A stretch of DNA of 64,000 nucleotides from Escherichia phage phiWec172: the sequence record LC739530.1; one strand, written 5' to 3'. How positions within the stretch are numbered: the stretch's first letter is position 1; each line of letters opens with the position of its first letter. Made by a program: the position numbers and the translations under genes. Below, one piece after another: positions 1-19,520 of the stretch. The notes under the pieces were generated by a model. It made no database searches. It saw nothing but the letters and a program-made list of their open reading frames with translations, and was not told the DNA's origin.

Positions 1-47
1 CCCCCCCCCCCGTTGATTGACAATTTACAGATTTTTATCAGGCTTGT

Positions 48-281
48 CTAGTCTTTTTCAATGATAATCTCATATTGTCCATCAACACTGTCGAAATAGA
101 TTCCTTCGTCATCTTCTGTCTTAAAGTAACATTGTATATCATCACTTGCGGGATAGTCTTGCCTTGCTATCTGGCAAACTTGAACAGCATTCTCTTTACT
201 CCCTGTAAACTCCTCAAGCCCTTTAAAATCGCATGAATGGCCATTACAAATTGAGAGGATGAGATAAACGGTTGTTAGCAT
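48..281 (-). CDS. hypothetical protein
   Basis: 77-aa ORF from track; no recognisable motif. Confidence 0.3.
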   Translation of the reverse strand: MLTTVYLILSICNGHSCDFKGLEEFTGSKENAVQVCQIARQDYPASDDIQCYFKTEDDEGIYFDSVDGQYEIIIEKD

Positions 282-346
282 GATTTAAGCCCTCTAAAAG
301 CCCCTGTAAGGGGCTGATTAGTGTTTATAAGGTGATTGTATAGGTT

Positions 347-889
347 TTAAAAAAAGCTCTTTAAGTCTCTCTCTGTGATGTTTCCCGTTAGTGTATCCAT
401 GATGTCACAAAAAACCTGAATACTGTCCGACTGTTGAACACTTTTAGCGAGAAGCTCCAGAGACTCATCAAGATAGTTCATATTTGGGTTATCCAGTGAA
501 GGAAGACAAAAAGGCGAATACATCGCATTAAATTCTGTTACGTAAACCTTTTTAATCCAACTTACATCAAAGTACTCTGTAAAACTTGCTACACTCGACA
601 TATTATCACAAGAATAATCATCGTTTAGCTCATCCTCTGGAATATCGAGTTCTAAGATAACAATATTTTGAGTCTTCATCTGAAAAGCTGCGGTGATAGT
701 GGCATTGCCTAGAGCTTGTTGGATACCTTCGGCTGTTATCTCTTCCTCATCGTCGCCATAGATTTTATTTTCTGGATAAACGTAAAAATTGCCGTCCATA
801 TCCGAACAATTCCATGCGCCCGATGGTTTATCACCGTTATTAATCAGGTTGATAAAGTTTTCTTGAGTAGTACCATGAAAGCATTTCAT
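347..889 (-). CDS. hypothetical protein
   Basis: 180-aa ORF, followed upstream (890-974) by a conserved cassette and RBS. Confidence 0.4.
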   Translation of the reverse strand: MKCFHGTTQENFINLINNGDKPSGAWNCSDMDGNFYVYPENKIYGDDEEEITAEGIQQALGNATITAAFQMKTQNIVILELDIPEDELNDDYSCDNMSSVASFTEYFDVSWIKKVYVTEFNAMYSPFCLPSLDNPNMNYLDESLELLAKSVQQSDSIQVFCDIMDTLTGNITERDLKSFF

Positions 890-974
890 TTTTGAATCTC
901 CAGTTTAGGATTTAGTGGTAAAGCTCTTTATCTGGGGCTTAAGATACCAACTTTTAAGCCCCTTGTAAAGTACT
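890..974 (-). promoter_or_regulatory. Repeated intergenic cassette type A (hairpin GGGGCTTAA-11nt-TTAAGCCCC plus conserved leader with GGAGA RBS)
   Basis: Near-identical copies at 1684-1769, 2756-2843, 3240-3311; sits between stop of upstream gene and ATG of 347..889. Confidence 0.5.
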
Positions 975-1178
975 TTATTTGTTATTTTTGACAACTTTTA
1001 AAACTGCACGGTAACCTAAGCAATAAGAATCACCGAAGAGTGACCGGCCCATGAAAGATTCTTCTGTAATATCTTTCGCCGTGACAGTTTTTTCTACGCC
1101 GTGAAAGAGAACTATATCACCAACTTTAATATCTTTGATGTGAGTTGTTTCAATGTGTAAGCCGTTGATAATAGCCAT
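975..1178 (-). CDS. hypothetical protein
   Basis: 67-aa ORF directly preceded by type B cassette. Confidence 0.35.
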   Translation of the reverse strand: MAIINGLHIETTHIKDIKVGDIVLFHGVEKTVTAKDITEESFMGRSLFGDSYCLGYRAVLKVVKNNK

Positions 1179-1278
1179 TTTAGAATCTCCAGTTTAGGAC
1201 TTTATTTAGTGGGGAGGTTATCGCCTCCCCGTTGATGTGTAATTTAACCTATCTAAAAATCAGTGTCAACAAAATTTT
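1179..1278 (-). promoter_or_regulatory. Repeated intergenic cassette type B with sigma70-like promoter (TTGACA-17-TAAATT), hairpin GGGGAGG-6nt-CCTCCCC and conserved RBS leader
   Basis: Minus-strand TTGACA at about 1264-1269, TAAATT at about 1241-1246, hairpin about 1213-1232; related copies at 2043-2132 and 3693-3770. Confidence 0.4.
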
Positions 1279-1683
1279 TTAGAGTTCTGCATAAATTGCA
1301 TCACAGACATCACGAAAATCGTGATTTGTCAAATTACGTTGTAACCAAGTGGCAAAGAAATCAGCGATTGCAAAATTAGCGTCATACTCGACGGATAGCC
1401 ATACTTTAACAGCAAATCTAAACATTTTCAAATCTAACTCCCTATTCATTACCTTAGATTTGCCTAGCATATCAATCATTTCATATTGCGCACCGTCTAG
1501 CGTGATACCTGCTGCAACGTCAGCCAATGAACTTTTTACGTTTTCAACGTCTAAAATAATACTTTGAATCTTCCCAATAATGCTGTGCAATGTTTCATCT
1601 GGTGCTGATGACGTAATAACATTAATCCGGTTAACGGTCAAACGTGCTTTTAAAATTGATAATTCACGGTTATTAATAGCCAT
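1279..1683 (-). CDS. hypothetical protein
   Basis: 134-aa ORF; stop immediately abuts cassette B. Confidence 0.4.
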   Translation of the reverse strand: MAINNRELSILKARLTVNRINVITSSAPDETLHSIIGKIQSIILDVENVKSSLADVAAGITLDGAQYEMIDMLGKSKVMNRELDLKMFRFAVKVWLSVEYDANFAIADFFATWLQRNLTNHDFRDVCDAIYAEL

Positions 1684-1769
1684 TTTTAAGTTCTCCAGTT
1701 TAGGATTGAGTGGTAAAGCTCTTTATCTGGGGCTTACTTTATCGAACTATAAGCCCCTTGTAAAGTACT
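1684..1769 (-). promoter_or_regulatory. Repeated intergenic cassette type A
   Basis: Hairpin GGGGCTTAC-11nt-GTAAGCCCC (plus-strand view) plus conserved leader ...CTAAACTGGAGAACTTAAAAATG. Confidence 0.5.
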
Positions 1770-2042
1770 TTATGCTAAATGCAGCTTTTTACCTTTTACC
1801 ATGATGTAACTTGTTGCGCTATTGCTGTATACATCTTGATAAATTCTGCGCAAACGGCCTTCGTAGTATACTTTCCAGCTAGTTGGAATCTTTTTCCCGT
1901 ATCCTGTAACAGTTTTTTGGAGTCCTGCAAGTTGCCAATCTAAAATGTGTTGTTCGGCTTGTAAATCCTCGAAGTGCATTACACCGTTCACATAGTGGCG
2001 TAGGGTTACGTTTAAAGTGCGACCGTTGTTAGTAGTATACAT
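1770..2042 (-). CDS. hypothetical protein
   Basis: 90-aa ORF flanked by cassettes. Confidence 0.4.
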   Translation of the reverse strand: MYTTNNGRTLNVTLRHYVNGVMHFEDLQAEQHILDWQLAGLQKTVTGYGKKIPTSWKVYYEGRLRRIYQDVYSNSATSYIMVKGKKLHLA

Positions 2043-2132
2043 TTTTGAATCTCCTAGTTTAAGGACTTTACTTAGTGGGGAAGTTCATTCCCTCACCGTT
2101 GATTAGTAATTTACTTGTTTTAAAAACCAAAA
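2043..2132 (-). promoter_or_regulatory. Repeated intergenic cassette type B (imperfect hairpin, TAAATT -10-like box)
   Basis: Shares ...CAACGG-hairpin-...AAAGTCCTTAAACTAGGAGATTCAAAAA leader with 1179-1278. Confidence 0.35.
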
Positions 2133-2465
2133 TCAAGAGGAATTTTTTCGTTTGCTCAATTCTTGAACAATTACAACGTAATAATCTTTTAAGTCACTGA
2201 CATTCAAAGCATTTATCAGTGAATTATAATCATCGACTAACTGAAAATCATCTTTGAAGATGTCACTTATCTGATAGGTTTTCGCTTTATATCTGAAGCT
2301 CATCTCTAGCCGCTTTATTTGCTCATCACTGAGGCGTCCTAGAAAGCTCTCTACAAGGTTATTGCTAACCTGCTGTGTGATTGCCTTATTTGCTAGATTA
2401 TAGGCTTTATATGCCTTATATAGCGCGAAAATGGCAATGATTGCAGTGATACCAGTCATTAACAC
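2133..2465 (-). CDS. hypothetical membrane protein
   Basis: 110 aa; hydrophobic N-terminus MLMTGITAIIAIFALY suggests one TM helix. Confidence 0.4.
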   Translation of the reverse strand: MLMTGITAIIAIFALYKAYKAYNLANKAITQQVSNNLVESFLGRLSDEQIKRLEMSFRYKAKTYQISDIFKDDFQLVDDYNSLINALNVSDLKDYYVVIVQELSKRKNSS

Positions 2466-2755
2466 GGTGTTTCCTCTTTACGTGATACTTTGCCACTTAC
2501 AGTTATCTCATAAGATTCTAATAAATCGCTTTTAGACTTTACAGGGCTTTTAAAAGTATCATCGTAGATATTGACTTGTAATACAGGTTTTTTATATTCC
2601 CTGCAACTATTCCATAAGCAAATTACTACACGACGGCCTTTTATTTTGCCGTGTAACCATTCCATAACATCATGACTATTCCTTGATGTTTCAATAAAAT
2701 CAATTTTGTTAAGTAACTTGCTTAGATTTTCACGGGCTTTATTTGATAGTTTCAT
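2459..2755 (-). CDS. hypothetical protein
   Basis: 98-aa ORF preceded by cassette A. Confidence 0.4.
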   Translation of the reverse strand: MKLSNKARENLSKLLNKIDFIETSRNSHDVMEWLHGKIKGRRVVICLWNSCREYKKPVLQVNIYDDTFKSPVKSKSDLLESYEITVSGKVSRKEETPC

Positions 2756-2843
2756 TTTTGAAACTCCAGTTTAGGATTGAGTGGTAAAGCTCTTTATCTG
2801 GGGCTTACTTTATCGAACTGTAAGCCCCCTGTAAAGTACTTTA
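2756..2843 (-). promoter_or_regulatory. Repeated intergenic cassette type A
   Basis: Hairpin GGGGCTTAC...GTAAGCCCC plus conserved leader. Confidence 0.5.
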
Positions 2844-3239
2844 TTAGTTAATTTTGAAAATTGTCACATAGCCGTCACTGCCGATTATTTGAGACACTCC
2901 AGCTTTTTCCACTGAATAGCCCATATTTTCAAGATGATAAACAGCATCATCATAACCATATGCGCCACCCTGATAACGTCTCTTATCGCATCTTATCAGG
3001 TTTTTACCACGTCCTGCAAGTGCATGGAGAATTGTTTTTTCACTTGAAAGAGTACCATCTAACATGGTTGCCGTGTAATGGTTGATTTTATTCCCGTTGA
3101 TATCATACTTAAAATTGAACGAGTGAACAACAATTATTTTGCCGTTAAATTTTTCATCAAGCGCCTTCTCTAATACATTACGAAAATTTTCTTTATTGAT
3201 GAATTTCGGTGCGCGGTATGCCATTTTTAAGTTCTCCAA
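2844..3239 (-). CDS. hypothetical protein
   Basis: 131-aa ORF. Confidence 0.4.
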   Translation of the reverse strand: MENLKMAYRAPKFINKENFRNVLEKALDEKFNGKIIVVHSFNFKYDINGNKINHYTATMLDGTLSSEKTILHALAGRGKNLIRCDKRRYQGGAYGYDDAVYHLENMGYSVEKAGVSQIIGSDGYVTIFKIN

Positions 3240-3311
3240 TTTAGGATTGAGTGGTAAAGCTCTTTATCTGGGGCTTAAGATACTACCTTTTTAAACCCCA
3301 TGTAAAGCACT
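3240..3311 (-). promoter_or_regulatory. Repeated intergenic cassette type A (imperfect hairpin)
   Basis: Same conserved leader GTGGTAAAGCTCTTTATCTGGGGCTTAAG... (plus-strand view). Confidence 0.45.
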
Positions 3312-3473
3312 TTATGAAATAATTTTTATAAAATCTTTCATGGTTATCTTGTCGCCATTTGTTAGGGCTATGCAGTCATTATCCATCACTGACTTGTAAA
3401 GGTAGAAAACTTTCCCAATTTTTGGGTATCCGTCTAAATCTTTGTAGCTTATTACATTGCCTTCTTTAATCAT
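3312..3473 (-). CDS. small hypothetical protein (about 53 aa), below ORF-track length cutoff
   Basis: ATG-initiated frame MIKEGNVISYKDLDGYPKIGK... read on minus strand; stop overlaps end of cassette A. Confidence 0.3.
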   Translation of the reverse strand: MIKEGNVISYKDLDGYPKIGKVFYLYKSVMDNDCIALTNGDKITMKDFIKIIS

Positions 3474-3485
3474 TGTCAAGCCCTT

Positions 3486-3692
3486 TTAAACGTCATAGTA
3501 GTAAACTGCTGTATGTCTTGTAAACTGTCTTGTGTGATTTGTCAAATAACAATCTGACCTGATTGATGTATCAACATATTTATCAAAATCCTTTTCTGAG
3601 ATACGTTGCCATACATCACAAATAAGCATAAAGAAACGGCGCTTTTTAGTCTTGTTATTGTCTACAATCATCAATTGGCGTTGATATAACAT
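3486..3692 (-). CDS. hypothetical protein
   Basis: 68-aa ORF preceded by cassette B. Confidence 0.4.
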   Translation of the reverse strand: MLYQRQLMIVDNNKTKKRRFFMLICDVWQRISEKDFDKYVDTSIRSDCYLTNHTRQFTRHTAVYYYDV

Positions 3693-3770
3693 TTTAGAAT
3701 CTCCAGTTTAGGGAGTGGGCTTGCTTGCCCGTCTGATGCAAATATTACGTAAACCTGTTTTGTGTGTCAA
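3693..3770 (-). promoter_or_regulatory. Cassette type B with strong sigma70-like promoter (TTGACA-17-TAATAT), hairpin GGGC-6nt-GCCC and conserved RBS leader
   Basis: Minus-strand TTGACA at about 3765-3770, TAATAT at about 3742-3747, hairpin about 3717-3730. Confidence 0.45.
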
Positions 3771-4165
3771 TAGTTTTTATTAAATATTTTTGTAAGTTTG
3801 GGAGAGGAACGGGCGCGCACGACTACCACAAAACAGAACTACAATCAAGAATTATTTTTCAATCCGCTACAAATTTTTCTGTTGACTTTTCTTTTTAGAT
3901 GTGGTAGCCTTGTGAGAAATGGCGACATCCCCACCTACACCCACCTACCTGCACAATTCTAAAATGATTTTTCTTGCCCGACCTGATTTTTCTCTGCACG
4001 TTTTGAAAATGATTTTTCTATCCGGCGATGAGATTTTTTGGGATATCTGTACAGACCCCTCCAGATACCTGCACAAATTGAAAATGAAAAAGGCCGCCTT
4101 ACCTTAAATTTTTCAATGGGTTAGGCAGCCTTCTTAGATGATTTGTAGATACTGTGAAGTACTAA
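3771..4165. repeat. About 400-bp non-coding region with iteron-like direct repeats
   Basis: Three copies of CTGCAC(A/G)-N5-(A/G)AAAATGA at about 3949, 3995, 4069; tandem CACCTAC; GC island GGGCGCGC; no ORF with coding character (track ORF 3919..4107 looks spurious). Confidence 0.4.
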
Positions 4166-4945
4166 TCAGCTTATGAATTTGAACTTTTTAGAATACAGCA
4201 AGTAGTGAACTTCATCCTGATTTGTTGTGTAGATGTACGCTGCTGGGTAGTTATCAAAGAATACACCTTCATATCTTCCAAACGGGTCAACTGGGAACAT
4301 TTCACTGTTACACATACCCATCTCACTAACCAGAGGGTAACTAACCTCAACCTTGCCATCAACAAGCTGATAGAGGGTAACTTGATTAGTCTTCCCGTCA
4401 CTTAGCACGACACCATCATAGAATTGTGGTGCTGAGGTAGCATACTTAGTGGTAACTACACTTGCCATTGCTTCATCATAGACGTATAGGTACACATCAA
4501 CGTTATACATAACACTATTAATGAGGCTTTTCACAGCTTGTGCATCTAAACCGCCTATACCTGCCCCAATCATGGGTAAACCAATCTTACGAATGTTGTG
4601 CAGCCAGCAAAATTTACGGAGTTTTTCTAGTGACTCCACTAAGTATCGGTATGATGCACACTTCCCAACATCCAACTGTGTATATAGGTTAAAAATGTAA
4701 CCATACTCCGTTCGAGCATGTGACACCTCACCAGCCATCTGGTATCCGATATCATGGGCACTGTAGCCAAACTTTTTATGGAACTTCCGGTCAGCTTCTT
4801 CAGCTTTTGGGAAAATCTTAGCAATTTTTTGAGCGATTCCAGCACCCATGAGGTTACGACAGTTGCAACCATGAGCAATTAACTCAATGTCTGTGTTTTT
4901 GAAGGCAGCTAGTAAGTTACCTTTTACAACTTTTACAATACCCAT
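4166..4945 (-). CDS. Macro-domain (ADP-ribose-binding/processing) protein with C-terminal extension
   Basis: N-terminus VVKGNLLAAF..DIELIAHGCNCRNLMGAGIAQKIAKIFP resembles macro-domain core (compare YmdB [32 protein letters not shown]); about 90 extra C-terminal residues. Confidence 0.5.
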   Translation of the reverse strand: MGIVKVVKGNLLAAFKNTDIELIAHGCNCRNLMGAGIAQKIAKIFPKAEEADRKFHKKFGYSAHDIGYQMAGEVSHARTEYGYIFNLYTQLDVGKCASYRYLVESLEKLRKFCWLHNIRKIGLPMIGAGIGGLDAQAVKSLINSVMYNVDVYLYVYDEAMASVVTTKYATSAPQFYDGVVLSDGKTNQVTLYQLVDGKVEVSYPLVSEMGMCNSEMFPVDPFGRYEGVFFDNYPAAYIYTTNQDEVHYLLYSKKFKFIS

Positions 4946-5182
4946 TTAACATCTCTCCCAAGATTCTTTATCTTCTGAAGGCTTTACACGTTGCCCTTCG
5001 TGGTCTACCCAGATACATCCACAACCTTCACAGATTACTGGCATTGCATAGCCAGCTTTAAAGTCATCTTCAGTGATAAGACCTTTTAAGTCACCTGTAT
5101 CACGTCCGAACATTTCGATAGCACAATCTTTGCAGAAGTCAGCCATGAATAATTGCCTCTTGGATGATGATGCCTTCGCCAC
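4946..5182 (-). CDS. Small Cys-rich putative zinc-binding protein
   Basis: 78 aa with FCKDCA ... CEGCGC cysteine clusters. Confidence 0.4.
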   Translation of the reverse strand: MAKASSSKRQLFMADFCKDCAIEMFGRDTGDLKGLITEDDFKAGYAMPVICEGCGCIWVDHEGQRVKPSEDKESWERC

Positions 5183-5372
5183 AGCGACTTTTGAAATCTT
5201 CTAATGGTTCAGAGATGAAGCCGCGTAAACGGTCACTGAATTTACGTTTTAAACCCTTCTTATAAGTTAGCACATCTTCCCCTGCAAACGGGACGACTTC
5301 ATCTCTCCCTATGAATACTGCTGAACGTACAATCTTGCGGGTCTTTTTATCTCTGGCTAGTATTACTTTCAT
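5139..5372 (-). CDS. hypothetical protein
   Basis: 77-aa ORF; 5-prime end overlaps neighbour, true start may be internal. Confidence 0.3.
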   Translation of the reverse strand: MKVILARDKKTRKIVRSAVFIGRDEVVPFAGEDVLTYKKGLKRKFSDRLRGFISEPLEDFKSRCGEGIIIQEAIIHG

Positions 5373-5676
5373 AGTTTACCTTCTCAGTTAGCTCATACAA
5401 GTCAACATGCTCAATGCTATCAATGTTGATACCAATCTTTTTGAAGCGTTCTATCACTTCGTTGTCAGTCATCCATATCAGACACCAATGATTATGGATG
5501 GATTCTTCAAGAAGGTCAACACAGTCTTTAAAAGTTTTTGTATCACTTCTTGTTCCGACTACTGCGATTGTCCCATACAACCACTTACCATTGCCATAAG
5601 ATACTTGTGCTACGCCAACTTCTTTATCTTTCTCGTCGTAGTAAACGGCTACAAAGTCTCTTCCATTAATCTGCAT
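5347..5676 (-). CDS. hypothetical protein
   Basis: 109-aa ORF. Confidence 0.4.
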   Translation of the reverse strand: MQINGRDFVAVYYDEKDKEVGVAQVSYGNGKWLYGTIAVVGTRSDTKTFKDCVDLLEESIHNHWCLIWMTDNEVIERFKKIGINIDSIEHVDLYELTEKVNYESNTSQR

Positions 5677-5678
5677 AT

Positions 5679-5948
5679 TTACTTCCTCGTTTTAAGAACT
5701 GCTAAGATTTCTTTAGAATCTGGTAAGAACCATGTGTAGTGATTCTCTTTGATTTCTGGATGAGTGTCAACCTTTATTTTGCAGTCTTTACCAACATGCT
5801 TAAGCTGTGCTGTGACACCCTGCATAAAGATATGACACATCACATTATCCATAATGGTTGGTATGAAGTCAATTCGCATATAAGTTTCTTTTGGGCGTGG
5901 TAACAGTAAGTACCCTTCTACGTAAAAAGTATCTTCATTCTCTGTCAT
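5679..5948 (-). CDS. hypothetical protein
   Basis: 89-aa ORF. Confidence 0.4.
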   Translation of the reverse strand: MTENEDTFYVEGYLLLPRPKETYMRIDFIPTIMDNVMCHIFMQGVTAQLKHVGKDCKIKVDTHPEIKENHYTWFLPDSKEILAVLKTRK

Positions 5949-6214
5949 TGCTGTTTATTTCCTAATAAAATCATGTCAATAAGGTTGTTAGCTTTGATTG
6001 TGCACTGGTAAAAGCCGTCACGATAGGACTCAAGGGCTGCTGCTACATCACTGCCTGTGTTACCTTTGATGATATACCGTGATTCTTCTTGAGTGTACTT
6101 ATCACTCTCACTTACTTGGGAGTTTTTGAATGTACTGCTCACTTTGTTCGTTGAACACCCTGACATAGTTATCAGTAACACAAACATTATAAAACTCTGG
6201 CTTAGTTTTTTCAT
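5945..6214 (-). CDS. Putative lipoprotein; candidate outer-membrane spanin (Rz1-like) overlapping the upstream gene
   Basis: Signal peptide with lipobox LITMSGC; starts inside 6108..6455 in another frame. Confidence 0.35.
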   Translation of the reverse strand: MKKLSQSFIMFVLLITMSGCSTNKVSSTFKNSQVSESDKYTQEESRYIIKGNTGSDVAAALESYRDGFYQCTIKANNLIDMILLGNKQQ

Positions 6215-6455
6215 ATGTTAGTACCTCTTTTGTATGCTTATTCTTAGCAAGCACATCTTTCAAATCATTTTTGTAATTGGTGCTCAGTGTGACTAATCCT
6301 TCCTGATAAGCATCTTTAGCAACACTTATGAGCTTTTGATTGTTTAGCTCAGTTTCAGCAACTTGATAGTCTCTGTAAGAGTATCCTCCCCAGACACCTG
6401 CACCAACTAAGAAAACAATTATGAAAGTAGCTTGACAGAACTCTTTAAATGTCAT
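6108..6455 (-). CDS. Putative inner-membrane spanin (Rz-like): N-terminal TM helix plus periplasmic domain
   Basis: N-terminal hydrophobic segment ATFIIVFLVGAGVWGG; embedded overlapping lipoprotein gene. Confidence 0.35.
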   Translation of the reverse strand: MTFKEFCQATFIIVFLVGAGVWGGYSYRDYQVAETELNNQKLISVAKDAYQEGLVTLSTNYKNDLKDVLAKNKHTKEVLTYEKTKPEFYNVCVTDNYVRVFNEQSEQYIQKLPSK

Positions 6456-6469
6456 TTAACAATCTCCTA

Positions 6470-6497
6470 AAATGAAAAAGGCTCCCGAAGGAGCCTG
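6470..6497 (-). terminator. Intrinsic terminator (GGCUCC-UUCG-GGAGCC then U5 on minus strand)
   Basis: Perfect 6-7 bp GC stem with UUCG tetraloop followed by TTTTT in direction of transcription, downstream of 6508..6972. Confidence 0.6.
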
Positions 6498-6507
6498 TAT
6501 CTTAACC

Positions 6508-6972
6508 TTAACCGAGGACTTTAGCAAGGATATTCGCAGCCATCGAAGAAGCTTTTGCAGCAGCAACTACGCCAGCTTTGATAGTGCTATCCTTAATAGC
6601 AGATACCGTTGCAGCATCAGTAAAGAGATAAGTAGTTGTTTTAGAACCACTTGTAAAGGAAAGCATAAGAGCAGTTTCCAGATTGAAAGAGCGATACGGA
6701 GCACCTTCTTTAACAATACCTTCAGCACCTAATTCTGAAGCCATACCCATATCATAGATAGTCATCAGATTTTCTTTATGTGCTGTCGTTGAGCCAGAAC
6801 CTTTTACGTGTTTCTTAACATTCAAAAGAGCACGATACTCTCGGATGTTACCGTCTGCTTTTACATTGACAGCACGGAAGATTTTACCCTCAAAGTTGCT
6901 CTTGATAATGTTACGAACTACTTCAGATTTGTTTGCCGTAACGTCCAGTGCTACCGTAATGATATTGTTCAT
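6508..6972 (-). CDS. hypothetical protein
   Basis: 154-aa ORF. Confidence 0.45.
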   Translation of the reverse strand: MNNIITVALDVTANKSEVVRNIIKSNFEGKIFRAVNVKADGNIREYRALLNVKKHVKGSGSTTAHKENLMTIYDMGMASELGAEGIVKEGAPYRSFNLETALMLSFTSGSKTTTYLFTDAATVSAIKDSTIKAGVVAAAKASSMAANILAKVLG

Positions 6973-6982
6973 AAGTTTTCTC

Positions 6983-7678
6983 TCAATGTTTAACTAACAT
7001 GGTTTTAATGTGTGGAAGGATTCTGTTCACCTTCTGCACATTCTTCTCTGTGTCTTCTATAAAACATACTATATTAAAGTAAGGCAGAATGCAAGACTGA
7101 ATTATCCTCACTTTCAAACTTTCTGCACTTATAGAGTTAGTCCCAAAACCACGCATAAAAAGCATGTAGTCATGCTCTGTGTTATGCCTTAAAAACATCT
7201 CAGTAGGTATTCTCTGAGATTCACCTCTCGCTGTCAAGAGTCCAACAGCAGCATGATTAGCAATTGCATCAATGATATTGAAAACATACGTCGGCTTTGC
7301 TCTTACAGAATCAAGAAGATTGGTATACTGCGAGAATGAACCGTCGGTCAATTCCGTTGAGCAATCTTCGTGATTAAAATTTGTAAGAACACCATCAATA
7401 TCTGCTAAGATGAGATTCCCTTTTTCTACAAGGTCTTTATTGACTATGACTAAGCTATCACGACTCACACCTATAGTTTGTCCAGTCTCTTTATCTACAA
7501 CATTCACAATTGGCTCTGATGTGTGGAACTCTTCGAGTGAACATACAACTTCTCTTGCGGTGTCTTCAAAATCCCTACACTGTTCTGGAGTCCATATGTC
7601 AGAATCAAGACCTAACTCATGAGGATGCAAGTCATAAGCATGGCACAGTACTTCATCAGACTTTCTTAATTTTTTCAT
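6983..7678 (-). CDS. HAD-superfamily phosphatase (possible nucleotidase)
   Basis: Motif LILADIDGVLTNF (DxDGT-type HAD motif I). Confidence 0.4.
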   Translation of the reverse strand: MKKLRKSDEVLCHAYDLHPHELGLDSDIWTPEQCRDFEDTAREVVCSLEEFHTSEPIVNVVDKETGQTIGVSRDSLVIVNKDLVEKGNLILADIDGVLTNFNHEDCSTELTDGSFSQYTNLLDSVRAKPTYVFNIIDAIANHAAVGLLTARGESQRIPTEMFLRHNTEHDYMLFMRGFGTNSISAESLKVRIIQSCILPYFNIVCFIEDTEKNVQKVNRILPHIKTMLVKH

Positions 7679-8204
7679 GATTTACCTTAGAAATGTTTGT
7701 TGCAAATTCACATTGAGCGATAACTTTCATGTTGTTATAGACATCTTGAGAATATTTCTTAGCTTTAGGGATTCTGTACGAATACCCAGCATTATATGAT
7801 GCTAAAACTTTTTGTAAAATCTTCTTTGACTTTGGCTGACCATGCACCTTTGTCCAAAACTCAAGTTCTTTGTGCGTTTCCTTCGCAGCATAGTCAAAGT
7901 CTTTTAAGAGTTTCTTTTTAGCCACATTAGGACTAATTTTGTTACGCTTTACAACAGTCTTCAAGTGATTCTGGAAAATACCATAATCATGTGTCTTTTT
8001 ATTCTCTACCTTCAGACCTAACTCTGACTCTTGTAAGGCTATAGCAGCTAGAGTGATACCCCAACCTTTACCCATGTTATTCTCACCATACTGGTAAGCT
8101 TTTAACATGTTTACTTTTTGGCTAATTGATAGCTCTGGGCAGTCAACTGCATAAGATAAGTGTGCTGTAAACATTAAGCACAAACCTAGAATCAATTTCT
8201 TCAT
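7656..8204 (-). CDS. Secreted lytic transglycosylase-like protein (SLT domain)
   Basis: N-terminal signal peptide MKKLILGLCLMFTAHLSYA; motifs QESELG, YGIFQ, SYNAGYSY resemble SLT E-S / GLMQ / AYNAG. Confidence 0.45.
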   Translation of the reverse strand: MKKLILGLCLMFTAHLSYAVDCPELSISQKVNMLKAYQYGENNMGKGWGITLAAIALQESELGLKVENKKTHDYGIFQNHLKTVVKRNKISPNVAKKKLLKDFDYAAKETHKELEFWTKVHGQPKSKKILQKVLASYNAGYSYRIPKAKKYSQDVYNNMKVIAQCEFATNISKVNHEKIKKV

Positions 8205-8235
8205 TGGTTCTCCTGTTTAGTTTATCGTGACAACA

Positions 8236-8266
8236 ATTATACAGCACTCTGCACAAAATACAAATA
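8236..8266 (-). promoter_or_regulatory. Candidate extended -10 promoter (TGTATAAT) for 7656..8204
   Basis: Minus-strand TGTATAAT at about 8236-8243, weak -35; strong SD AGGAGA upstream of ATG. Confidence 0.3.
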
Positions 8267-8293
8267 AAAAAGGCCGCCGAAGCAGCCTTTTAA
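8266..8293 (-). terminator. Intrinsic terminator downstream of rIIB (stem with one mismatch, UUCG loop, U-run)
   Basis: AAAGGCCGC-CGAA-GCAGCCTTT palindrome; T-run on minus strand. Confidence 0.45.
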
Positions 8294-8304
8294 GAAATTA
8301 CTTA

Positions 8305-9414
8305 TTAGATTTCACGTTTACGCTGAGAGATAAGTTCTCCAGCAGTACCAACGATGACATGAAAAGCTTCAGTCTTGCCATCCCATGCTTTCAGTACTTT
8401 ACGTTGATTATCAACGATTGCTGCAACTTCATAACGAGACGAGCGCATCTTCATATCGTTGTAATCAGTTGGAACAGATACAACATCTCGTGGATGAACA
8501 CGAACCTTCAGAATTGTATCACCTGAGAAGCAACGAACATAATCCCAAGCACCAACATGAAGACCCTGAGAGCAAGTCACGTTACGGTTATTATCAACCA
8601 TCCAACGTGGCATTTCTACAATATTACCTAAATCATTAGGTACTCTGTAGGTGTGGGAGTCAACCAGCTTGCCTTCACGAGTGGATACTTTCTTCCAACC
8701 AATGATGTAGCCTTCTTCATCAATTTCAACATCAAGGTGAGATACGAAGCCCCAAAGTTGTTCTACAGAATCTTTAGATGGGTTTTCCATCAGTTTTTCG
8801 AAGAACATTACAAGTCGTTCAAAACCTTTATCACCAGTCTTCATCATGTGAAGAATACGGTCAACCAGAGTAGAACGCATCTCAACAGCACCGTAGAATA
8901 GCTTGTCACCTTTGATTGTGATAGCCCCCTGAGTGAAGTTTTCGATAGACTTACGAATGTTCATCAGTTCAAAGGCTTTCTTAAACTCACCTTTCACAAC
9001 ATGAACTACAATCTCTTGATAGTTCGGATGAGTAGATTCAACAATTTCAGACTCTGAACCGTAAGTCATAATTACAGAGTCACCAGTAATCATGTACTCA
9101 ATCTTGTCATCTTTCTGCATAGCTTCATGCAGTTTATTTACCGGAGCTTTCTGTACAGCATCTTTAACAACCTTTTCAACTGGTTTGCCAGCTTTCTTTT
9201 TAAAGGTCTTAGCAACTTGCTTCAAAGTCTTCGTAGCTGGTGTAGAAGTCACCTTCTTATTTCCTTTTAAGGTTGCTTCATGACGCTCTACAGCACGACC
9301 AACTGAACGGGTTGAAGTATTAAATCTCTGTGCAATAGCTGTTTTAGTCAGCTTGCCATCTTTAACCAGTTTGTAAATTTCTGCGTCAATCTGTGATTTA
9401 GTTTTAGTAGTCAT
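8305..9414 (-). CDS. rIIB: rIIB-like protein
   Basis: C-terminal motifs VEMPR, CSQGLHV, VHPRDVVSVPTDYNDMKMR match T4 rIIB as recalled. Confidence 0.65.
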   Translation of the reverse strand: MTTKTKSQIDAEIYKLVKDGKLTKTAIAQRFNTSTRSVGRAVERHEATLKGNKKVTSTPATKTLKQVAKTFKKKAGKPVEKVVKDAVQKAPVNKLHEAMQKDDKIEYMITGDSVIMTYGSESEIVESTHPNYQEIVVHVVKGEFKKAFELMNIRKSIENFTQGAITIKGDKLFYGAVEMRSTLVDRILHMMKTGDKGFERLVMFFEKLMENPSKDSVEQLWGFVSHLDVEIDEEGYIIGWKKVSTREGKLVDSHTYRVPNDLGNIVEMPRWMVDNNRNVTCSQGLHVGAWDYVRCFSGDTILKVRVHPRDVVSVPTDYNDMKMRSSRYEVAAIVDNQRKVLKAWDGKTEAFHVIVGTAGELISQRKREI

Positions 9415-9493
9415 CTTATTACTCTCTCTTGTTAGTTAATAAATCATTTTGTGAGGATATTCTAAGGGGCTTTGAAGCCCCTTGTCAAACACT

Positions 9494-11860
9494 TTAATCG
9501 TAAATTGTAGTCCCTTCTGGAACACACTTCACATCAAAGCCCAAGAACTTACTCACTTCGATGGGTGACACTTTATTCCAATCTAAATGAGAAAGCAAGA
9601 AGTTTTCTTGTTTTCTTTTTGAGAAGTAGTTTGTCACCTTAATAAACATACGGTCACCAGCTTTCTTAATTTTCTTGTAAAGCTTTGTATCATTATCAAG
9701 ACACCTTTTCAAATCTTGCAACACACTAATAGTGTAAGTGTATGCAAATTGTGCAGCAACGTATTGGATTTTACCGAACATTGCCTCAACAGCATCTTCA
9801 TTACCTTCTAGGAAGATAGTTTTGTTTGTGTCCCGTGAATAGCAATAACCATCAGAAATCTTCCTGTTATTGAACGTAAAGTTTCTGGTAATAATCCAAC
9901 AGCTTGTAAGGTTAAGGACACCACGCATACAGATGCGTGTCATATACCTGTTATGATTAATCCAATGAACATCAGTTAAGCTGTCGTTCAAGAGCTTCTC
10001 ATCTACTTCAATCCAGTCTTCTGGTATCTTTTTCCAATTTGCTTTTCGGAAAACATAGACTGTCTTCCCTATAACATTAGCAACTGACTTAGCTACATCT
10101 TCTGGAGATGAGCAAAAACATTCACCATCAACTGTGTCGCCAACTGCCTTAATGTAAAGCTGAGGTTCTTCAATTGTGTCTAAGTCTTCTGACACCTCTG
10201 TGTATGAGGCTACACCTTCTGCTGGAACAGCTTTCCAGAGTTTTACAACACCTCTTACAGCTTCTTTACGCTGATAGTGATGTTCCTTATCAGACATCTT
10301 CACAATCTTTAACAAGCTTTTATCAAGTTTGTGTAGGTTGATTAAGTCATCTAGCTCTTTTTCAGTCGAGAATACAAACACAATACCATTATATCTGTGA
10401 AACAGACTTGACTCACTGGCGTAATCTCGACATGCACCACGCAGAATCTGATTGCGGCCTACAGTCTTCTCAGTGCCATTTTTATTACGACGGTCATTAA
10501 TCACGAACAAAAACTGTTCAATTTGGCTTTTACGCATTGCACCAAAGATATTGAACATACTTGCCTCTTGAGTGTAGGAAAGTGCTGTTGCACGAATCTT
10601 ACTCTCTAAAGAGTTGAACTTGACATAAGCAACTGGATTATAAAGATAATCCACTTTAGGGATATTGTTCCCGTTCCTATCAACCTTGATATTACCTTTA
10701 CCGTCACGTTCATAAATGACTGAGCCGTCTTCTGCGTAGATAATCCCACGACGGATGTTTAGTAATTCTACTTCCAGAGAATCAAGCTTAACGCCTCCCC
10801 ACTCTAGCTTTGGACACACAACATTAAACATCTCTCGTGAGTTCAAACGTAACTCAGCATAAGCCTGTGCAGCATCCATGAGTGTAGGTTGGCTGTTAAC
10901 TTTCTTGATAACATCCTTTGTAATGGCTTCAGTTATCTTTTTAGTAGCCTCAATGATAACATTTTTTGTCGTATCATTCATCTGCAATGCTTCACGAGAA
11001 GCTGCAATAGCAACTGAACCAATAGGCATGTAAATGTTTACAAGGTCTACGCTCCTACGGAAAAACTCTGGCAAGACTTTGAAGAAATCATCACCAAGTA
11101 ATGCTTCCATATTAACTGGATAGGCAATATTACCCATCACCACATTAAACTCTGTCCTGTTACCACTAGAACGCCAGCTTTGCTTATGAATCATAGCGTC
11201 ATAAACACCTTCTTCACGAGCAATGACATTCATGTCTGCTAACACGTCATCATATACAATATTACTTTCTGGTTTTACAGCAAAGTATGAGTATACGTGA
11301 CCAGCCTCTTCAAAGAACTTTGAAATACGGTGGTCAGCAACTGCCACACGTACAGCTAAACCATTAGGTTCTTTTGTTGGGTTAGTGGTCAGCTTAGTTA
11401 CTTGAGGGATACCATTCTCAAGGTAAACAGAGTACTTATTAACAACACCATCAACATAGCTAGATACTGTGAATGACTGAGCAATTGCAAATGGAGATTT
11501 TGAACCGATACCCATTGCACCAATGTAATCATTAGAGTCATTCTTCGTAGAAGCCCCGTAGTTTAGGTACAAACTCATAACTTTATCATGAGTCAATCCA
11601 GTTCCAAAATCACGGACTTCAAAGTAAGGCTCAAAACGAGTAGGTAAATGCACATGGAACGGGATATTCTCTTTTCCAGCTTCTTTCTGAGCATCTACTG
11701 CGTTACATGACAGTTCACGAATCACTGCCCTTTCTTTAAAGGTATATACACCAGAACTCAAAAGGCTGAACATTTCAGGTGTCATTGTAATCTGTGCTTG
11801 AGATGTCTCCAAAGAAGTTGAACTCTTAATCACTTCTGCGTGGTCATTTACCATGCGCAT
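9494..11860 (-). CDS. rIIA: rIIA-like protein (N-terminal GHKL/HATPase-like domain)
   Basis: AVIRELSCNAVDAQ, FEVRDFGTGL, NDYIGAMGIGSKSPF match T4 rIIA N-terminal motifs; 788 aa. Confidence 0.7.
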   Translation of the reverse strand: MRMVNDHAEVIKSSTSLETSQAQITMTPEMFSLLSSGVYTFKERAVIRELSCNAVDAQKEAGKENIPFHVHLPTRFEPYFEVRDFGTGLTHDKVMSLYLNYGASTKNDSNDYIGAMGIGSKSPFAIAQSFTVSSYVDGVVNKYSVYLENGIPQVTKLTTNPTKEPNGLAVRVAVADHRISKFFEEAGHVYSYFAVKPESNIVYDDVLADMNVIAREEGVYDAMIHKQSWRSSGNRTEFNVVMGNIAYPVNMEALLGDDFFKVLPEFFRRSVDLVNIYMPIGSVAIAASREALQMNDTTKNVIIEATKKITEAITKDVIKKVNSQPTLMDAAQAYAELRLNSREMFNVVCPKLEWGGVKLDSLEVELLNIRRGIIYAEDGSVIYERDGKGNIKVDRNGNNIPKVDYLYNPVAYVKFNSLESKIRATALSYTQEASMFNIFGAMRKSQIEQFLFVINDRRNKNGTEKTVGRNQILRGACRDYASESSLFHRYNGIVFVFSTEKELDDLINLHKLDKSLLKIVKMSDKEHHYQRKEAVRGVVKLWKAVPAEGVASYTEVSEDLDTIEEPQLYIKAVGDTVDGECFCSSPEDVAKSVANVIGKTVYVFRKANWKKIPEDWIEVDEKLLNDSLTDVHWINHNRYMTRICMRGVLNLTSCWIITRNFTFNNRKISDGYCYSRDTNKTIFLEGNEDAVEAMFGKIQYVAAQFAYTYTISVLQDLKRCLDNDTKLYKKIKKAGDRMFIKVTNYFSKRKQENFLLSHLDWNKVSPIEVSKFLGFDVKCVPEGTTIYD

Positions 11861-12434: not shown

Positions 12435-14216
12435 TTAAAGCTGCTTGTCAATATTATTTCGAATATCACCAAGAGATGTGTAACCGTACTGCTCAGAGTC
12501 ACTAAAGACTAAACGTAAAGCACAAGCTGGGTGGTCAAGTGCATCTGCAAAGCTCTGGAATCCATAGCCATCTACAGCTTTCAACTTATCACCATCCCAC
12601 ATAGGTGCTACACCACCAAAAGCAGACTTCTTAACACCACTATCTGTTTTAGGGTCTTTTGCAAGCATAATCTCTTTACCACCAATGCTTGCAAGAGTTG
12701 CTTTAACAGCAAATGCAAAGGTGTCACGAGTCATGTACTGGTAAGTGTAAGAGCCTACGCCAAACACTACGTTAGAGCTTGCAAAACCCATTTCATACAG
12801 ACGCTTCAGGATTTCGTTTGCACGTTCCAGCGTGATAGAGTCACCATAGATAAGGCCGATATGCTCATCCAGTACCTTAAACCCTTTAGAGTTAATAGTT
12901 CCCCCAAAGATGTTATACAGTGTCTTGATAGCTCCATCAATCTCCGCTACAGGACGTGTTACAACGTTTGCAGAACCAACCATATAAGCATTTTTCAACA
13001 GCACTGTATCAGCAACTTCAAAGTCTTCTCTGTCAACAACCATTTCGTAGCCTTCTGACAGTAGCCATCCAGCAATACCATAATTGATGTTTTCAAGCTT
13101 CATGTTCAGGACAGAGTTCAGCATTGTGTCACTTGCCTCTAGCTTGCTTAGGTGCTCGTAATAAGCCTTCTTAGCACACTCTAAGTGAATTGCTTTATAA
13201 CCTGTGACAATATGTACAGGGTCTCCAGAGTCAGGGCGAATTACCAGTTTGCCATCACGTTCCATAATTTCTTTACGGAGTGCTGGTAAGATTTCTGACA
13301 CAGTTCTCCAGAAGTTGTAAGTATCTGAAACAATACTTGCAATACCAGTTGGGTAAGTTTCTGTTAAGAAACGACGGAAGGTTTGTAACTCACCTTTAAA
13401 GCGTCTTTCTTCTTCAATCAACTCATTACCACCTTCCCAAGCAATGTTTGCACACATTACAGAGTGTTCAGTGGCTGGTACAGAGTTACCAATATCAGAG
13501 ATTGGGTAGGACTGACCGTAGATGCGTTTAGCTGTATAAACAGCAGGGAAACTATCAGTTCCTTTAAAGCTGGTTAAGTGACCTACAGCGTTAAATGCGT
13601 CATCAGTAAAGCCGGACATACCACGCATAGCAAAGTCATGGCACTGATAGGGTAGATGCAAGTCGTTGTCACAAGTAAGGTCAGCCCACTTCTTACAGAT
13701 ACGTTTGTAGTGCAATGCAATAGTTGCAATGGTACAAGCCTTCCAAATCTCAGCAGAGAAAGCATCTTCCAGATACCCAGCTACCCAATGGAAACCTGAA
13801 ATAGTGTTCTGGAAGACAATCATTGGGGCACGCATAGGGACAACTGTGCCTTCTTCTACAGCGTATACTTCAACTGGTAGATAACCTAAGTCGTTAAGTG
13901 CTTCCCAATGCTCTCGACCGATAGCATCTTTACCTAGAACACCGTTCATGACTTCTAAGATTTCGTCAATTGCTTCTTTTTTGTCACGTTCAAAGAAAGT
14001 GGCGTTCCAGTGGTCTATCAAGTAATCTTTAACAAAACGTTGAATACCAAAAGCCACTACACCGTCAATTGCTAAAGGGCTGTTAAACCATTTGTCACTA
14101 CGTGGTGTCAGGTTCAACATAAGATATTGCGTAGCATCTGGATACTGATATATATGTGATGCCTTGTAAGCATCTGCATTAAGACCTGCTGGTACTGCAT
14201 AAAGTGATTTAGTCAT
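12435..14216 (-). CDS. nadV: Nicotinamide phosphoribosyltransferase (NAMPT/NadV), with a roughly 90-aa internal insertion
   Basis: N-terminus DAYKASHIYQYP, core VIRPDSGDP and GLIYGDSI motifs match the NAMPT family; 593 aa versus about 490 typical. Confidence 0.75.
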   Translation of the reverse strand: MTKSLYAVPAGLNADAYKASHIYQYPDATQYLMLNLTPRSDKWFNSPLAIDGVVAFGIQRFVKDYLIDHWNATFFERDKKEAIDEILEVMNGVLGKDAIGREHWEALNDLGYLPVEVYAVEEGTVVPMRAPMIVFQNTISGFHWVAGYLEDAFSAEIWKACTIATIALHYKRICKKWADLTCDNDLHLPYQCHDFAMRGMSGFTDDAFNAVGHLTSFKGTDSFPAVYTAKRIYGQSYPISDIGNSVPATEHSVMCANIAWEGGNELIEEERRFKGELQTFRRFLTETYPTGIASIVSDTYNFWRTVSEILPALRKEIMERDGKLVIRPDSGDPVHIVTGYKAIHLECAKKAYYEHLSKLEASDTMLNSVLNMKLENINYGIAGWLLSEGYEMVVDREDFEVADTVLLKNAYMVGSANVVTRPVAEIDGAIKTLYNIFGGTINSKGFKVLDEHIGLIYGDSITLERANEILKRLYEMGFASSNVVFGVGSYTYQYMTRDTFAFAVKATLASIGGKEIMLAKDPKTDSGVKKSAFGGVAPMWDGDKLKAVDGYGFQSFADALDHPACALRLVFSDSEQYGYTSLGDIRNNIDKQL

Positions 14217-14731: not shown

Positions 14732-15628
14732 CTAATCAAGGTTTGCTACAGTAACTTGACTGTAATGTGTTAAGCCACGGTCTTTAGCTTCGCCTAAAGA
14801 GTTTGTAGTGTAAATATGGTCGATACCATTGTCAAGAAGGTTTTCAACATCTTTAGAGAAGATACCATGTGTTACATATAGTTCCACACGTTTTGCACCT
14901 GCTTCACGAAGATGTTTCGCTGCTTCTATGAAGGTTCGACCACCATCACAGATATCATCCAGAATCATGACGGTTTTATCTGTCAAATCAACATCATCAA
15001 GGATTCGCATACCAGTAATTTCACCAGTCTTAAGGTTACGCACTTTAGACATTGTGATGTATGGTTTATCCACCTCTTTAGCAGTCTCTGCAATCTTCTT
15101 AGCAGCACCTGCATCTGGGGCTACTAAGTAATCAATCAGTGGGTCATTTGCGTAGTGGACTGCAATCTCCTTTTGAGGAATACTCTGGAAGCAGTTAAAC
15201 AGGTTATCTGGAACGTAACTGTGAGGGTCAACTGCACAGACTGCACCAAACCCCATTGCATTTACCTGTTTAGCAAAAACCTTTAAAGCTGCTGCGTCGC
15301 CTTTAAACATGTGACGGTCATATCGTGCATTTGGTAAGTAGTAAAAGATGACAGTCTTTAAAGCATAATCATGAGGAATTAAATCATCAATTGCTTCTTT
15401 AGCAAGTGCCACAGCAAACAATGTGTCCTTATCATAACCTTTTACAATCATAATCACATTGTTGATAGATGATGCTGCATAAGCAGTGAAATCAACAAAC
15501 TCCGGTGAAAAGTGTCCACCAATCTCACCAGAAGGGAATTGGACGATGTTAAACTCTTCTTCATGAGTCCCTTTAGTTGGTGAATGAACTGTAACACGGA
15601 TAGATGTTTTCATAGTTTTCTCTCTCAA
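14732..15628 (-). CDS. prs: Ribose-phosphate pyrophosphokinase (PRPP synthetase)
   Basis: PRPP-binding motif VMILDDICDGGRTF; 298 aa. Confidence 0.7.
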   Translation of the reverse strand: MREKTMKTSIRVTVHSPTKGTHEEEFNIVQFPSGEIGGHFSPEFVDFTAYAASSINNVIMIVKGYDKDTLFAVALAKEAIDDLIPHDYALKTVIFYYLPNARYDRHMFKGDAAALKVFAKQVNAMGFGAVCAVDPHSYVPDNLFNCFQSIPQKEIAVHYANDPLIDYLVAPDAGAAKKIAETAKEVDKPYITMSKVRNLKTGEITGMRILDDVDLTDKTVMILDDICDGGRTFIEAAKHLREAGAKRVELYVTHGIFSKDVENLLDNGIDHIYTTNSLGEAKDRGLTHYSQVTVANLD

Positions 15629-18572: not shown

Positions 18573-19520
18573 TTACATAGAGACTCTATCACGAATCTCA
18601 GCGATTTTTGCATCGTTCATTCGGGATTCACCTTTAATCTTAGTCCATCCAAGATACCCACACACCCTGTTAATCACAGAGATATCATGTGAATGGCAAA
18701 CCTCACATTCTTCAACATCAGCCTTTGGTCTGTTACCACAATGTTCACAGATTGCTAAGTCAAAGTTAAGCCCCTGATAAAAACCTTTCAACATCCCTCT
18801 GGTAATACAACTTTTAAGTGCTGTTAAGTTTTCTGGGTTAGCTACCCTGACATACTGGATTCTCCCACCTCTACAGATATGGAAGAATGGCTCTTCTAAG
18901 TCCTGCTTCTCAAATGGTGATATGTCTGCTGCAACATTCATATGGAAACTGTTTGTAAAGTATTCCTTATCAGAAACACCTTTGATAACGCCAAACATAT
19001 CTCTGAACTGTTTTAGCTGAGTTCCGCAAAGTGATTCTGCTGGAGTACCATAGACGGCATATAAGAAGCCGTCTTCATTTTTAAACTCTTCAGTTTTCAT
19101 GTTAATGTATGCCAGAACATCGTATGTAAAACTACAGCTTCCAACTTCATGAAGCCGTTTACCTTCAGCAAGAACAGATAGCTCATCAAGCGCAGTAACC
19201 CCAAAAGAAGCTGTGAAGGACTTCACAATATCCCAACCAACCCTGTCAGTAGGATTCTTAGTTCCTTTATACAGACCACCTTGTGTAAATGCAAGAGGGT
19301 TAGAACTTGCTGGCATATTAGCAATCATTTCGTAGCGTTTCTTGTGGAAGCTGCGAATTATTTCTAGGTACTTATCAAGCTCTTTCCAGAAATCTAAACC
19401 ATTCTCTTTAGAATACTGGTAAATCATCGGTAAGTTCAAAGATACAGCACCAATGTTTGCACGACCTACATAAAACTCTTCACCATATTCGTTATAGTAT
19501 GGTGATAAAAATGCTCTACA
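18573..19520 (-). CDS. nrdD: Anaerobic ribonucleoside-triphosphate reductase NrdD, exon 2 (glycyl-radical and zinc-ribbon region)
   Basis: Glycyl-radical motif RVCGYLG, Cys cluster CEHCG..CEVC; open frame extends upstream of track start to CRAFLSPYY... Confidence 0.65.
   Translation of the reverse strand, partial: CRAFLSPYYNEYGEEFYVGRANIGAVSLNLPMIYQYSKENGLDFWKELDKYLEIIRSFHKKRYEMIANMPASSNPLAFTQGGLYKGTKNPTDRVGWDIVKSFTASFGVTALDELSVLAEGKRLHEVGSCSFTYDVLAYINMKTEEFKNEDGFLYAVYGTPAESLCGTQLKQFRDMFGVIKGVSDKEYFTNSFHMNVAADISPFEKQDLEEPFFHICRGGRIQYVRVANPENLTALKSCITRGMLKGFYQGLNFDLAICEHCGNRPKADVEECEVCHSHDISVINRVCGYLGWTKIKGESRMNDAKIAEIRDRVSM

Follow-up and report, generated by a model that had tools for sequence, protein, structure and literature searches.

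The bacterial defence system DarTG2 ADP-ribosylates thymidine in DNA, and two macrodomains, both named AdfM, were reported in 2025–26 as protecting phages from it. In phage T4, tk.4 was the single hit of a transposon screen on a DarTG2 host and was named adfM on that occasion; a clean tk.4 knockout makes T4 sensitive to DarTG2 (HIDEN-SEQ, bioRxiv 10.1101/2025.11.20.689424). PhiKZ gp104, which received the same name independently, strips the ADP-ribose made by DarT2 off DNA, is required for resistance and has N23 and K78 as active-site residues (PMC13309987). Among bacterial enzymes, S. coelicolor SCO6735 cleaves thymidine-linked ADP-ribose on DNA by means of Gln85, which is positioned by Asn27; its Q85A variant is inactive, and the wild-type protein protects against DarT (PMC9411070). 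Here we analyse a gene on the minus strand of a 64,000-nucleotide stretch of Escherichia phage phiWec172 (LC739530.1), referred to below as the window. Its product, the only macro-domain protein that the window holds, combines an N-terminal macro domain with a C-terminal domain and is, judging from sequence comparison, probably an AdfM-type DNA ADP-ribosyl-glycohydrolase directed against DarT2. The gene and its ribosome-binding site are as follows.

4166..4945, minus strand: complete coding sequence of the two-domain macro protein, an Ounavirinae member of PHROG 335 (259 amino acids plus stop, ATG start, from the list of open reading frames)
4953..4959, minus strand: Shine–Dalgarno sequence GGGAGAG, 7 nucleotides 5′ of the macro-gene ATG, read from the sequence

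The window represents a Felix O1-like myovirus with a lytic Felixounavirus genome. Positions 3000–7000 match Escherichia phage phiWec177 at 100%, and the region is matched by 257 phage records, which are Felixounavirus for the most part. The ATG of the macro gene directly abuts the stop of the preceding open reading frame (ORF), 4946–5182, in the sequence TAAATG, and both M1 and the MGIVK start are kept in homologues of the protein. Identity of the macro protein is 100% in phiWec174 and phiWec177 and 95% in VpaE1_ev035. Compared with the latter, from which the gene diverges by about 11% at the nucleotide level, the ratio of nonsynonymous to synonymous substitution rates (dN/dS) is 0.076, indicating that the gene is real and under selection. 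Calculated by part, it is 0.07 for the macro domain and 0.10 for the C-terminal domain; thus, both parts are expressed and selected.

Of 50,697 phage records, 2705 contain homologues of the macro protein (tblastn). The protein matches PHROG 335, a family labelled ‘phosphatase’, with E=6.5e-85 over residues 1–258. The same family is matched by T4 Tk.4 (1.3e-65), by PhiKZ gp104 (8.2e-43; sequence translated from the construct given in PMC13309987) and by gp14 of Erwinia phage phiEa21-4 (1.4e-75), a Kolesnikvirus homologue whose GenBank record reads ‘similar to RB49 Tk.4’. In direct comparison, Tk.4 is 33% identical to the macro protein over 159 residues (BLASTP, E=3e-22), and PhiKZ gp104 aligns with the family profile at an hhalign probability of 94% (E=1.2e-7). 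Tk.4 and the macro protein share the motifs HGCNC, MGxG(I/V)A, NLYTQ and IGAGIG, and both are phage orphans without an adjoining toxin gene. They differ at the end of the second glycine loop, which reads GGLD in the macro protein and GKGNW in Tk.4, and in architecture: Tk.4 is a macro domain alone (155 amino acids), whereas the macro protein adds a C-terminal domain of about 95 residues. Moreover, Tk.4 has a genetic phenotype, whereas the role of the macro protein is predicted from its relatives. PhiKZ gp104 shares the PHROG, the catalytic Asn (N23, compared with N28 in the macro protein) and the GxxxGGLD loop, but carries the DarG-type Lys K78 at the position of Gln90. It is a single-domain protein of 162 amino acids that is imported into the phage nucleus and for which DNA de-ADP-ribosylation has been shown biochemically (PMC13309987).

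Several comparisons place the N-terminal part of the protein among macro domains. An earlier note on the window had described the first 170 residues as resembling a macro domain, followed by a C-terminal extension; the boundaries that we obtained are these.

4475..4945, minus strand: macro domain, residues 1–157, with the ADP-ribose-binding/hydrolase fold of the TARG1/DarG/SCO6735 class (Pfam, DarG models, Foldseek, identity to T4 Tk.4)
4448..4474, minus strand: linker helix, residues 158–166 (DSSP on the AlphaFold2 model)
4169..4447, minus strand: C-terminal domain, residues 167–259, beta-rich and ending in a helix

The Pfam profile PF01661 (Macro) scored 29.0 bits, above its gathering cut-off of 22 (E=1.1e-6), with residues 25–140 covering profile positions 2–116 of 118. 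Searching PDB sequences gave TARG1 (2.5e-8), the macro domain of Thermus aquaticus DarG (8e-7) and Poa1p (9e-5), as well as M. tuberculosis DarG, SCO6735 (5e3b, E=0.0014) and BT_1257. The DarG models of NCBIfam and PADLOC match residues ~4–174 with E~1e-15. From 19 family sequences, AlphaFold2 produced a model of the full-length protein with a predicted local distance difference test (pLDDT) of 87.2 and a predicted template modelling score of 0.86. Using this model, Foldseek returned more than 50 macro structures at probability 1.00, with template modelling (TM) scores, normalised to the target, of 0.7–0.79. In the PDB it ranked the DarG macrodomain 5m31 first (E=7.7e-9; TM score 0.71 when normalised to the target). 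TARG1, M. tuberculosis DarG and Poa1p came next, and all of these align with the N-terminal ~160 residues alone. The leading entries were 5m31, 4j5r, 5m3e and 5m3i, and SCO6735 was matched at E=2.7e-6. The two glycine-rich ADP-ribose-binding loops, MGAGIA (33–38) and IGAGIGG (126–132), are invariant or nearly so in 19 family members. By profile and predicted structure, then, ORF 4166–4945 encodes a genuine macro domain of the TARG1/DarG/SCO6735 (ALC1-like) class. The earlier observation stands because the search against macro-domain profiles gave a match and the predicted structure has a macro fold. Its extent was set slightly too long, as the macro domain ends near residue 157, and the C-terminal extension is borne out as the linker helix (158–166) and a beta-rich domain (~167–259) modelled with pLDDT above 90.

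The active site can be read from alignments to characterised macrodomains.

4862..4873, minus strand: codons for His25-Gly-Cys-Asn28, the HGCN motif (hhalign and MAFFT alignments; alignments to wild-type and H23A Poa1p)
4676..4678, minus strand: codon for Gln90 in the NLYTQ motif (phmmer and hhalign alignments to TARG1 and PhiKZ AdfM)

Asn28 aligns with the catalytic Asn of DarG (N22) and PhiKZ AdfM (N23) and is equivalent to N27 of SCO6735, and H25, G26 and N28 are invariant across the 19 family members. Where TARG1 (K84), DarG (K80) and PhiKZ AdfM (K78) have their catalytic Lys, the macro protein has Gln90. The NLYTQ motif around it is invariant in 19 of 19 Ounavirinae-type sequences and is also found in T4 Tk.4 and in nearly all short homologues. 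Gln90 matches Gln85 of SCO6735, an equivalence established by transitivity through the TARG1 and DarG alignments rather than by direct alignment. The second glycine loop, IGAGIGGLD (GxGxGGLD), follows the pattern of DarG and AdfM rather than that of TARG1, and the Asp125 partner of TARG1 is absent from the macro protein (Gly131), as it is from DarG. Going by these alignments, the Tk.4-type phage clade has an SCO6735-type Asn/Gln active site. SCO6735 itself (PDB 5E3B) resembles the macro protein in its TARG1/DarG class, in the Gln at the catalytic-Lys position and in the supporting Asn; it differs as a bacterial housekeeping or DNA-damage-linked enzyme, with ~22% identity and without such a C-terminal domain. 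We also considered whether the Lys-to-Gln exchange marks an inactive, binding-only macro domain. This is ruled out: Gln90 is no sign of inactivity because SCO6735 hydrolyses thymidine-linked ADP-ribose with an essential Gln85, and T4 Tk.4 protects against DarTG2 with the same Gln.

On infection, bacterial DarTG2 systems release their toxin DarT2, which uses NAD+ to attach ADP-ribose to thymidines of single-stranded phage DNA and thereby blocks replication. In the mechanism that we propose, the N-terminal macro domain would bind the ADP-ribose and hydrolyse the thymidine–ribose bond, restoring normal DNA. Catalysis would depend on an SCO6735-like arrangement of Asn28 and Gln90, not on the Lys of DarG and TARG1: as for SCO6735, the Gln would position the distal ribose, the Asn would hold the Gln, and a backbone-activated water would start the reaction. 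We infer the thymidine-ADP-ribose DNA substrate and the anti-DarTG2 role from the relatives of the protein, and the suggestion in the earlier note that the domain can reverse ADP-ribosylation gains support from its membership of PHROG 335 alongside T4 Tk.4 and PhiKZ gp104. Several points weigh against this assignment. Identity to the tested proteins is low, at 33% for T4 Tk.4 and ~26% for PhiKZ gp104, and the literature that we searched gave no de-ADP-ribosylation or DarTG2 plating data on members of the Ounavirinae. For the Gln-type T4 Tk.4, enzymatic activity ‘seems likely’ in the wording of the preprint (10.1101/2025.11.20.689424). Both characterised AdfMs are single-domain proteins of 155–162 amino acids, and the extra domain of the macro protein could redirect its specificity. 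Finally, the Poa1p-like HxCNC motif with its His23 equivalent leaves room for a small-molecule substrate.

This last point leads to an alternative that we regard as quite unlikely, namely a Poa1p-like small-molecule enzyme (ADP-ribose-1″-phosphate phosphatase or O-acetyl-ADP-ribose deacetylase) that disposes of by-products derived from NAD, such as those of RNA repair. Residues 4–60 match yeast Poa1p (E=5e-6) with a nearly identical HxCNC...GxGIA...YPKAE segment, and Foldseek also finds Poa1p (E=2.7e-7). His25-Gly-Cys-Asn-Cys aligns with H23-S-C-N-C of Poa1p, including the His that is mutated in 6LFS, the H23A chain, which has Ala there (Poa1p structures 6LFQ–6LFU). Because the HGCNC motif with His25 matches Poa1p His23, relatives already carry labels such as ‘phosphatase’ and ‘Poa1p-like, high-affinity ADP-ribose binding module’, besides ‘macro domain protein’. 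Also in its favour are a polynucleotide-kinase/phosphatase-like gene 2 kb upstream and a Tpt1-like NAD-binding fold that PhageMaP mentions in Bas63 Gp107 (10.1101/2024.10.10.617714).

6983–7678, minus strand: polynucleotide-kinase-like protein (PHROG 3970, E=3.5e-133), for which the Pfam scan matched the PNKP HAD phosphatase domain weakly and no kinase domain
2498–3280 of L004: phiEa21-4 gp14, a macro homologue with AQGCNC, in which Gln replaces the Poa1p-type His

However, the sequence likeness to Poa1p spans the N-terminal third alone, the remainder being nearer TARG1 and DarG, and DarG models and DarG/TARG1 structures outscore Poa1p over the entire domain. Poa1p acts on a small molecule, whereas the phenotype of the T4 orthologue is defence-specific. 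The ‘phosphatase’ label derives from an A1pp motif note, not from an assay, and His25 is not universal, as phiEa21-4 gp14 has Gln in its place.

The macro protein could also serve a different macromolecule. It would then be a de-ADP-ribosylase without being an anti-DarT2 factor, and its substrate would be protein or RNA that had received ADP-ribose from a phage enzyme or from some other ADP-ribosyltransferase defence of bacteria. Proteins are the substrate of TARG1, one of the nearest relatives in both structure and sequence; SCO6735 takes both DNA and protein substrates (PMC9411070); and the C-terminal domain could confer a different target specificity. We nevertheless consider this unlikely. 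The sole phenotypes known in the phage family are anti-DarTG2, and wild-type T4, although it has Tk.4, is still strongly restricted by CmdTAC, a defence that ADP-ribosylates mRNA (PMC11618068), which argues that the Tk.4 type does not neutralise mRNA modification. In addition, none of the 30 window ORFs that were scanned was recognisable as an ADP-ribosyltransferase gene.

As an AdfM-type protein with a second domain, the macro protein invites comparison with DarG, the antitoxin of DarTG2. DarG provides the best structural match (5m31) and shares the layout of an N-terminal macro domain followed by a C-terminal module. It differs in having Lys rather than Gln, in a C-terminal DarT-binding domain unrelated to that of the macro protein, and in that darT lies next to darG. 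An identity as DarG is ruled out by the NCBIfam model NF048014, which scored 54.8 bits against a cut-off of 250 and matched at model positions 2–165 of 338 alone, as well as by the unrelated C-terminal domain and the lack of an adjacent darT gene. The DarT/DUF4433 family had no match among the 30 window ORFs scanned, a set that did not cover all small ORFs. A separate observation concerns P0030, a 338-amino-acid protein on a metagenomic contig of 1398 bp, in which a macro domain of the NLYTQ type is joined to a different C-terminal region of ~170 residues. Its length equals that of the NCBIfam DarG model; a Gln-type antitoxin resembling DarG and a further phage variant are both conceivable.

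The C-terminal domain is modelled with pLDDT above 90 both in the full-length protein and as a domain on its own (90.4 when modelled alone). The predicted fold has six to seven beta strands together with two helices, a short one inside the domain and another at its C terminus. Comparisons gave no Pfam match and no PDB structure match, and the sole BFVD match was its own family. When 1.84 billion representative proteins were searched exhaustively with a HMMER profile, the domain was seen only fused to this macro domain; among the profile matches, P0036 is a low-complexity repeat and P0035 a 5′-truncated copy of the macro gene. Judged by these searches, the domain is found only in this phage subfamily. 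The C-terminal part of phiEa21-4 gp14, although of equal length, shows no detectable relation to it (hhalign probability 0.1%).

Three ideas about this domain were rejected. Beta-propeller matches (E=1e-5 to 1e-3) had raised the possibility of a PQQ/BamB propeller fragment; they reflect one hairpin motif of ~25 residues, with the pattern P-x-x-x-DG-hydrophobic run, matched over many blades. The model has no set of propeller blades, and the resemblance stays at the level of the motif. An acidic DNA mimic, as in DarG, or a basic DNA-binding domain is unsupported, since the isoelectric point ranges from 4.7 to 10.1 across alleles and charge is not conserved. Nor does the domain exist as a separate small gene beside tk.4 in T4, as the T4 tk.4 region gave no match.

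Between alleles, identity is 10–30% for the C-terminal domain compared with 39–53% for the macro domain. What is conserved of the C-terminal domain is thus its presence and apparently its fold, while its sequence is constrained within lineages and diverges fast between them. This pattern fits a protein–protein interface under conflict, without proving one, and our best guess is an accessory module that would contact a variable partner, be it a toxin, a host protein or a phage protein. A bolder proposal, to which we give only a small chance, is a bipartite mimic of the DarG antitoxin: the macro domain would erase the DNA mark, the C-terminal domain would bind the toxin, or a different variable defence protein of the host, and block it stoichiometrically, and the allele cassettes would be specificity variants for lineages of DarT2 or other ADP-ribosyltransferases in Escherichia, Salmonella and Shigella.

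These alleles differ as discrete blocks within otherwise closely similar genomes.

4109..4802, minus strand: allele-specific cassette comprising codons ~49–259 and the 3′ flank; blastn detects no nucleotide similarity between it and the common Felixounavirus allele

Compared by blastn with KP869109 (L002), which carries the common allele, positions 5366–8933 are 94.7% identical, 4803–5146 (codons 1–48 and the upstream gene) 85% and 3690–4108 68–72%, whereas 4109–4802 has no match. At the protein level, the window allele and the common allele are 41% identical. Identities found by tblastn fall into two classes, at least 95% in 12 records and below 60% in all others, with none in between; the lower class includes ~245 full-length Felixounavirus matches at ~41%. 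When proteins were clustered at 90% identity, several alleles were present in Felixounavirus, Mooglevirus and Hafnia phages. The drop in identity inside the gene, set against flanks of 94.7%, indicates that discrete cassettes are swapped by recombination with a breakpoint in the conserved 5′ end. Cassettes of ~40% identity in genomes of ~95% identity, together with strong purifying selection within an allele, read as signatures of an arms race.

The earlier note had also pointed to NAD+ salvage genes, and two such genes are indeed present in the window.

12435–14216: NAMPT-like protein, 593 amino acids, with an NAPRTase profile match in two stretches
14732–15628: PRPP-synthetase-like protein

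Their counterparts in the Felixounavirus Bas63, g79 and g80, alone counter Sir2-HerA and other NAD+-related defences (10.1101/2024.10.10.617714). Together with these genes, the macro protein might bind or degrade ADP-ribose (ADPR)-derived immune signals, such as the Thoeris-type gcADPR and His-ADPR, or free ADP-ribose. Macro domains do bind ADP-ribose derivatives, a Thoeris II effector macro domain senses His-ADPR (10.64898/2026.06.04.730250), and NAD+ reconstitution genes that are anti-defence in Bas63 lie in the same genome. We consider this reading very improbable. No phage macrodomain with such a role was found in the literature searched, and the invariant catalytic Asn and Gln favour a hydrolase of the DarG/SCO6735 type over a sponge. 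The NAD+ genes belong to a different block, 8–10 kb off, and Bas63 assays show them working in the absence of the macro gene. The joint manipulation of NAD and ADP-ribose metabolism envisaged in the note is therefore not upheld, and we found nothing that points to degradation of ADP-ribose-derived signals. NAD+ salvage and the macro gene are better seen as two counter-defences, separate from each other, against targets that both happen to consume NAD+.

The family and its likely role are already present in the literature and in database annotation, and the macro protein is largely an ordinary member apart from its fast-evolving C-terminal domain, the one new element. Felix O1-like phages are widely used in biocontrol and typing of Salmonella and E. 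coli. If the AdfM-type assignment is true, these phages come already equipped against DarTG2, and in several allele cassettes that can replace one another, which may be part of why near-identical therapeutic phages differ in host range. Should the C-terminal domain be a toxin-binding or targeting module, phages would have rebuilt the two-part logic of DarG independently; should it be a mere stabilising appendage, the macro gene would be one more AdfM homologue. The family also offers a test bed for how macrodomains with Gln in place of Lys (T4 Tk.4, SCO6735 and the macro protein) hydrolyse the thymidine–ADP-ribose bond.

In the genome, the macro gene is part of a long minus-strand block and sits downstream of rIIA and rIIB homologues; early expression, as labelled in the earlier note, is plausible. 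Its neighbours encode small proteins of unknown function, the polynucleotide-kinase-like protein, an SLT-like protein and spanins; the genes labelled spanins in relatives are ~1 kb upstream. Beyond its 3′ end, the ~470 bp of 3693–4165 are without a convincing ORF and carry a terminator and repeats; in a common-allele relative, an opposite-strand coding sequence of 84 amino acids is annotated in this place.

4081..4135, minus strand: intrinsic terminator, 30 nucleotides past the macro-gene stop, a long GC-rich hairpin followed by UUUUUCAUUUU (U-run)
3949–3991, 3994–4036 and 4069–4111: three direct repeats of ~43 nucleotides, beginning CTGCACAAnTnnAAAATGA
3742–3770, minus strand: sigma-70 promoter, near-consensus TTGACA-17-TAATAT, past the terminator and serving the next gene

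The terminator hairpin has a folding energy of −25.4 kcal/mol (z = −5.4), none of 200 shuffles folded as well, and its stem resembles those at 8268–8291 and 6479–6496. Sigma-70-like sites in the region are no commoner than in shuffles (24 versus 18.8 ± 4.9), and an Rfam scan of positions 1–10000 gave nothing above threshold. Between the small minus-strand genes, intergenic repeats of ~100–110 nucleotides, 65–87% identical to one another, recur in relatives as well and may be promoter/terminator modules.

884–994, 1679–1789, 2750–2860 and 3220–3330: intergenic repeat family, with weaker copies near 1162–1271 and 2022–2147
347–889, minus strand: protein of 180 amino acids, MKCFHGT..., PHROG 3303 (unknown function), the start of which recalls the H-G-T motif of ADP-ribosyltransferases

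ORF 347–889 was considered as a phage ADP-ribosyltransferase partner and set aside, as it had no Pfam or PDB sequence support. Elsewhere in the window, the anaerobic ribonucleotide reductase NrdD is divided between two ORFs, 18573–19439 and 20260–21459, ~820 bp apart. The N-terminal part covers profile positions 1–250 and the C-terminal part 284–560, and the split suggests an intron or an inserted mobile element.

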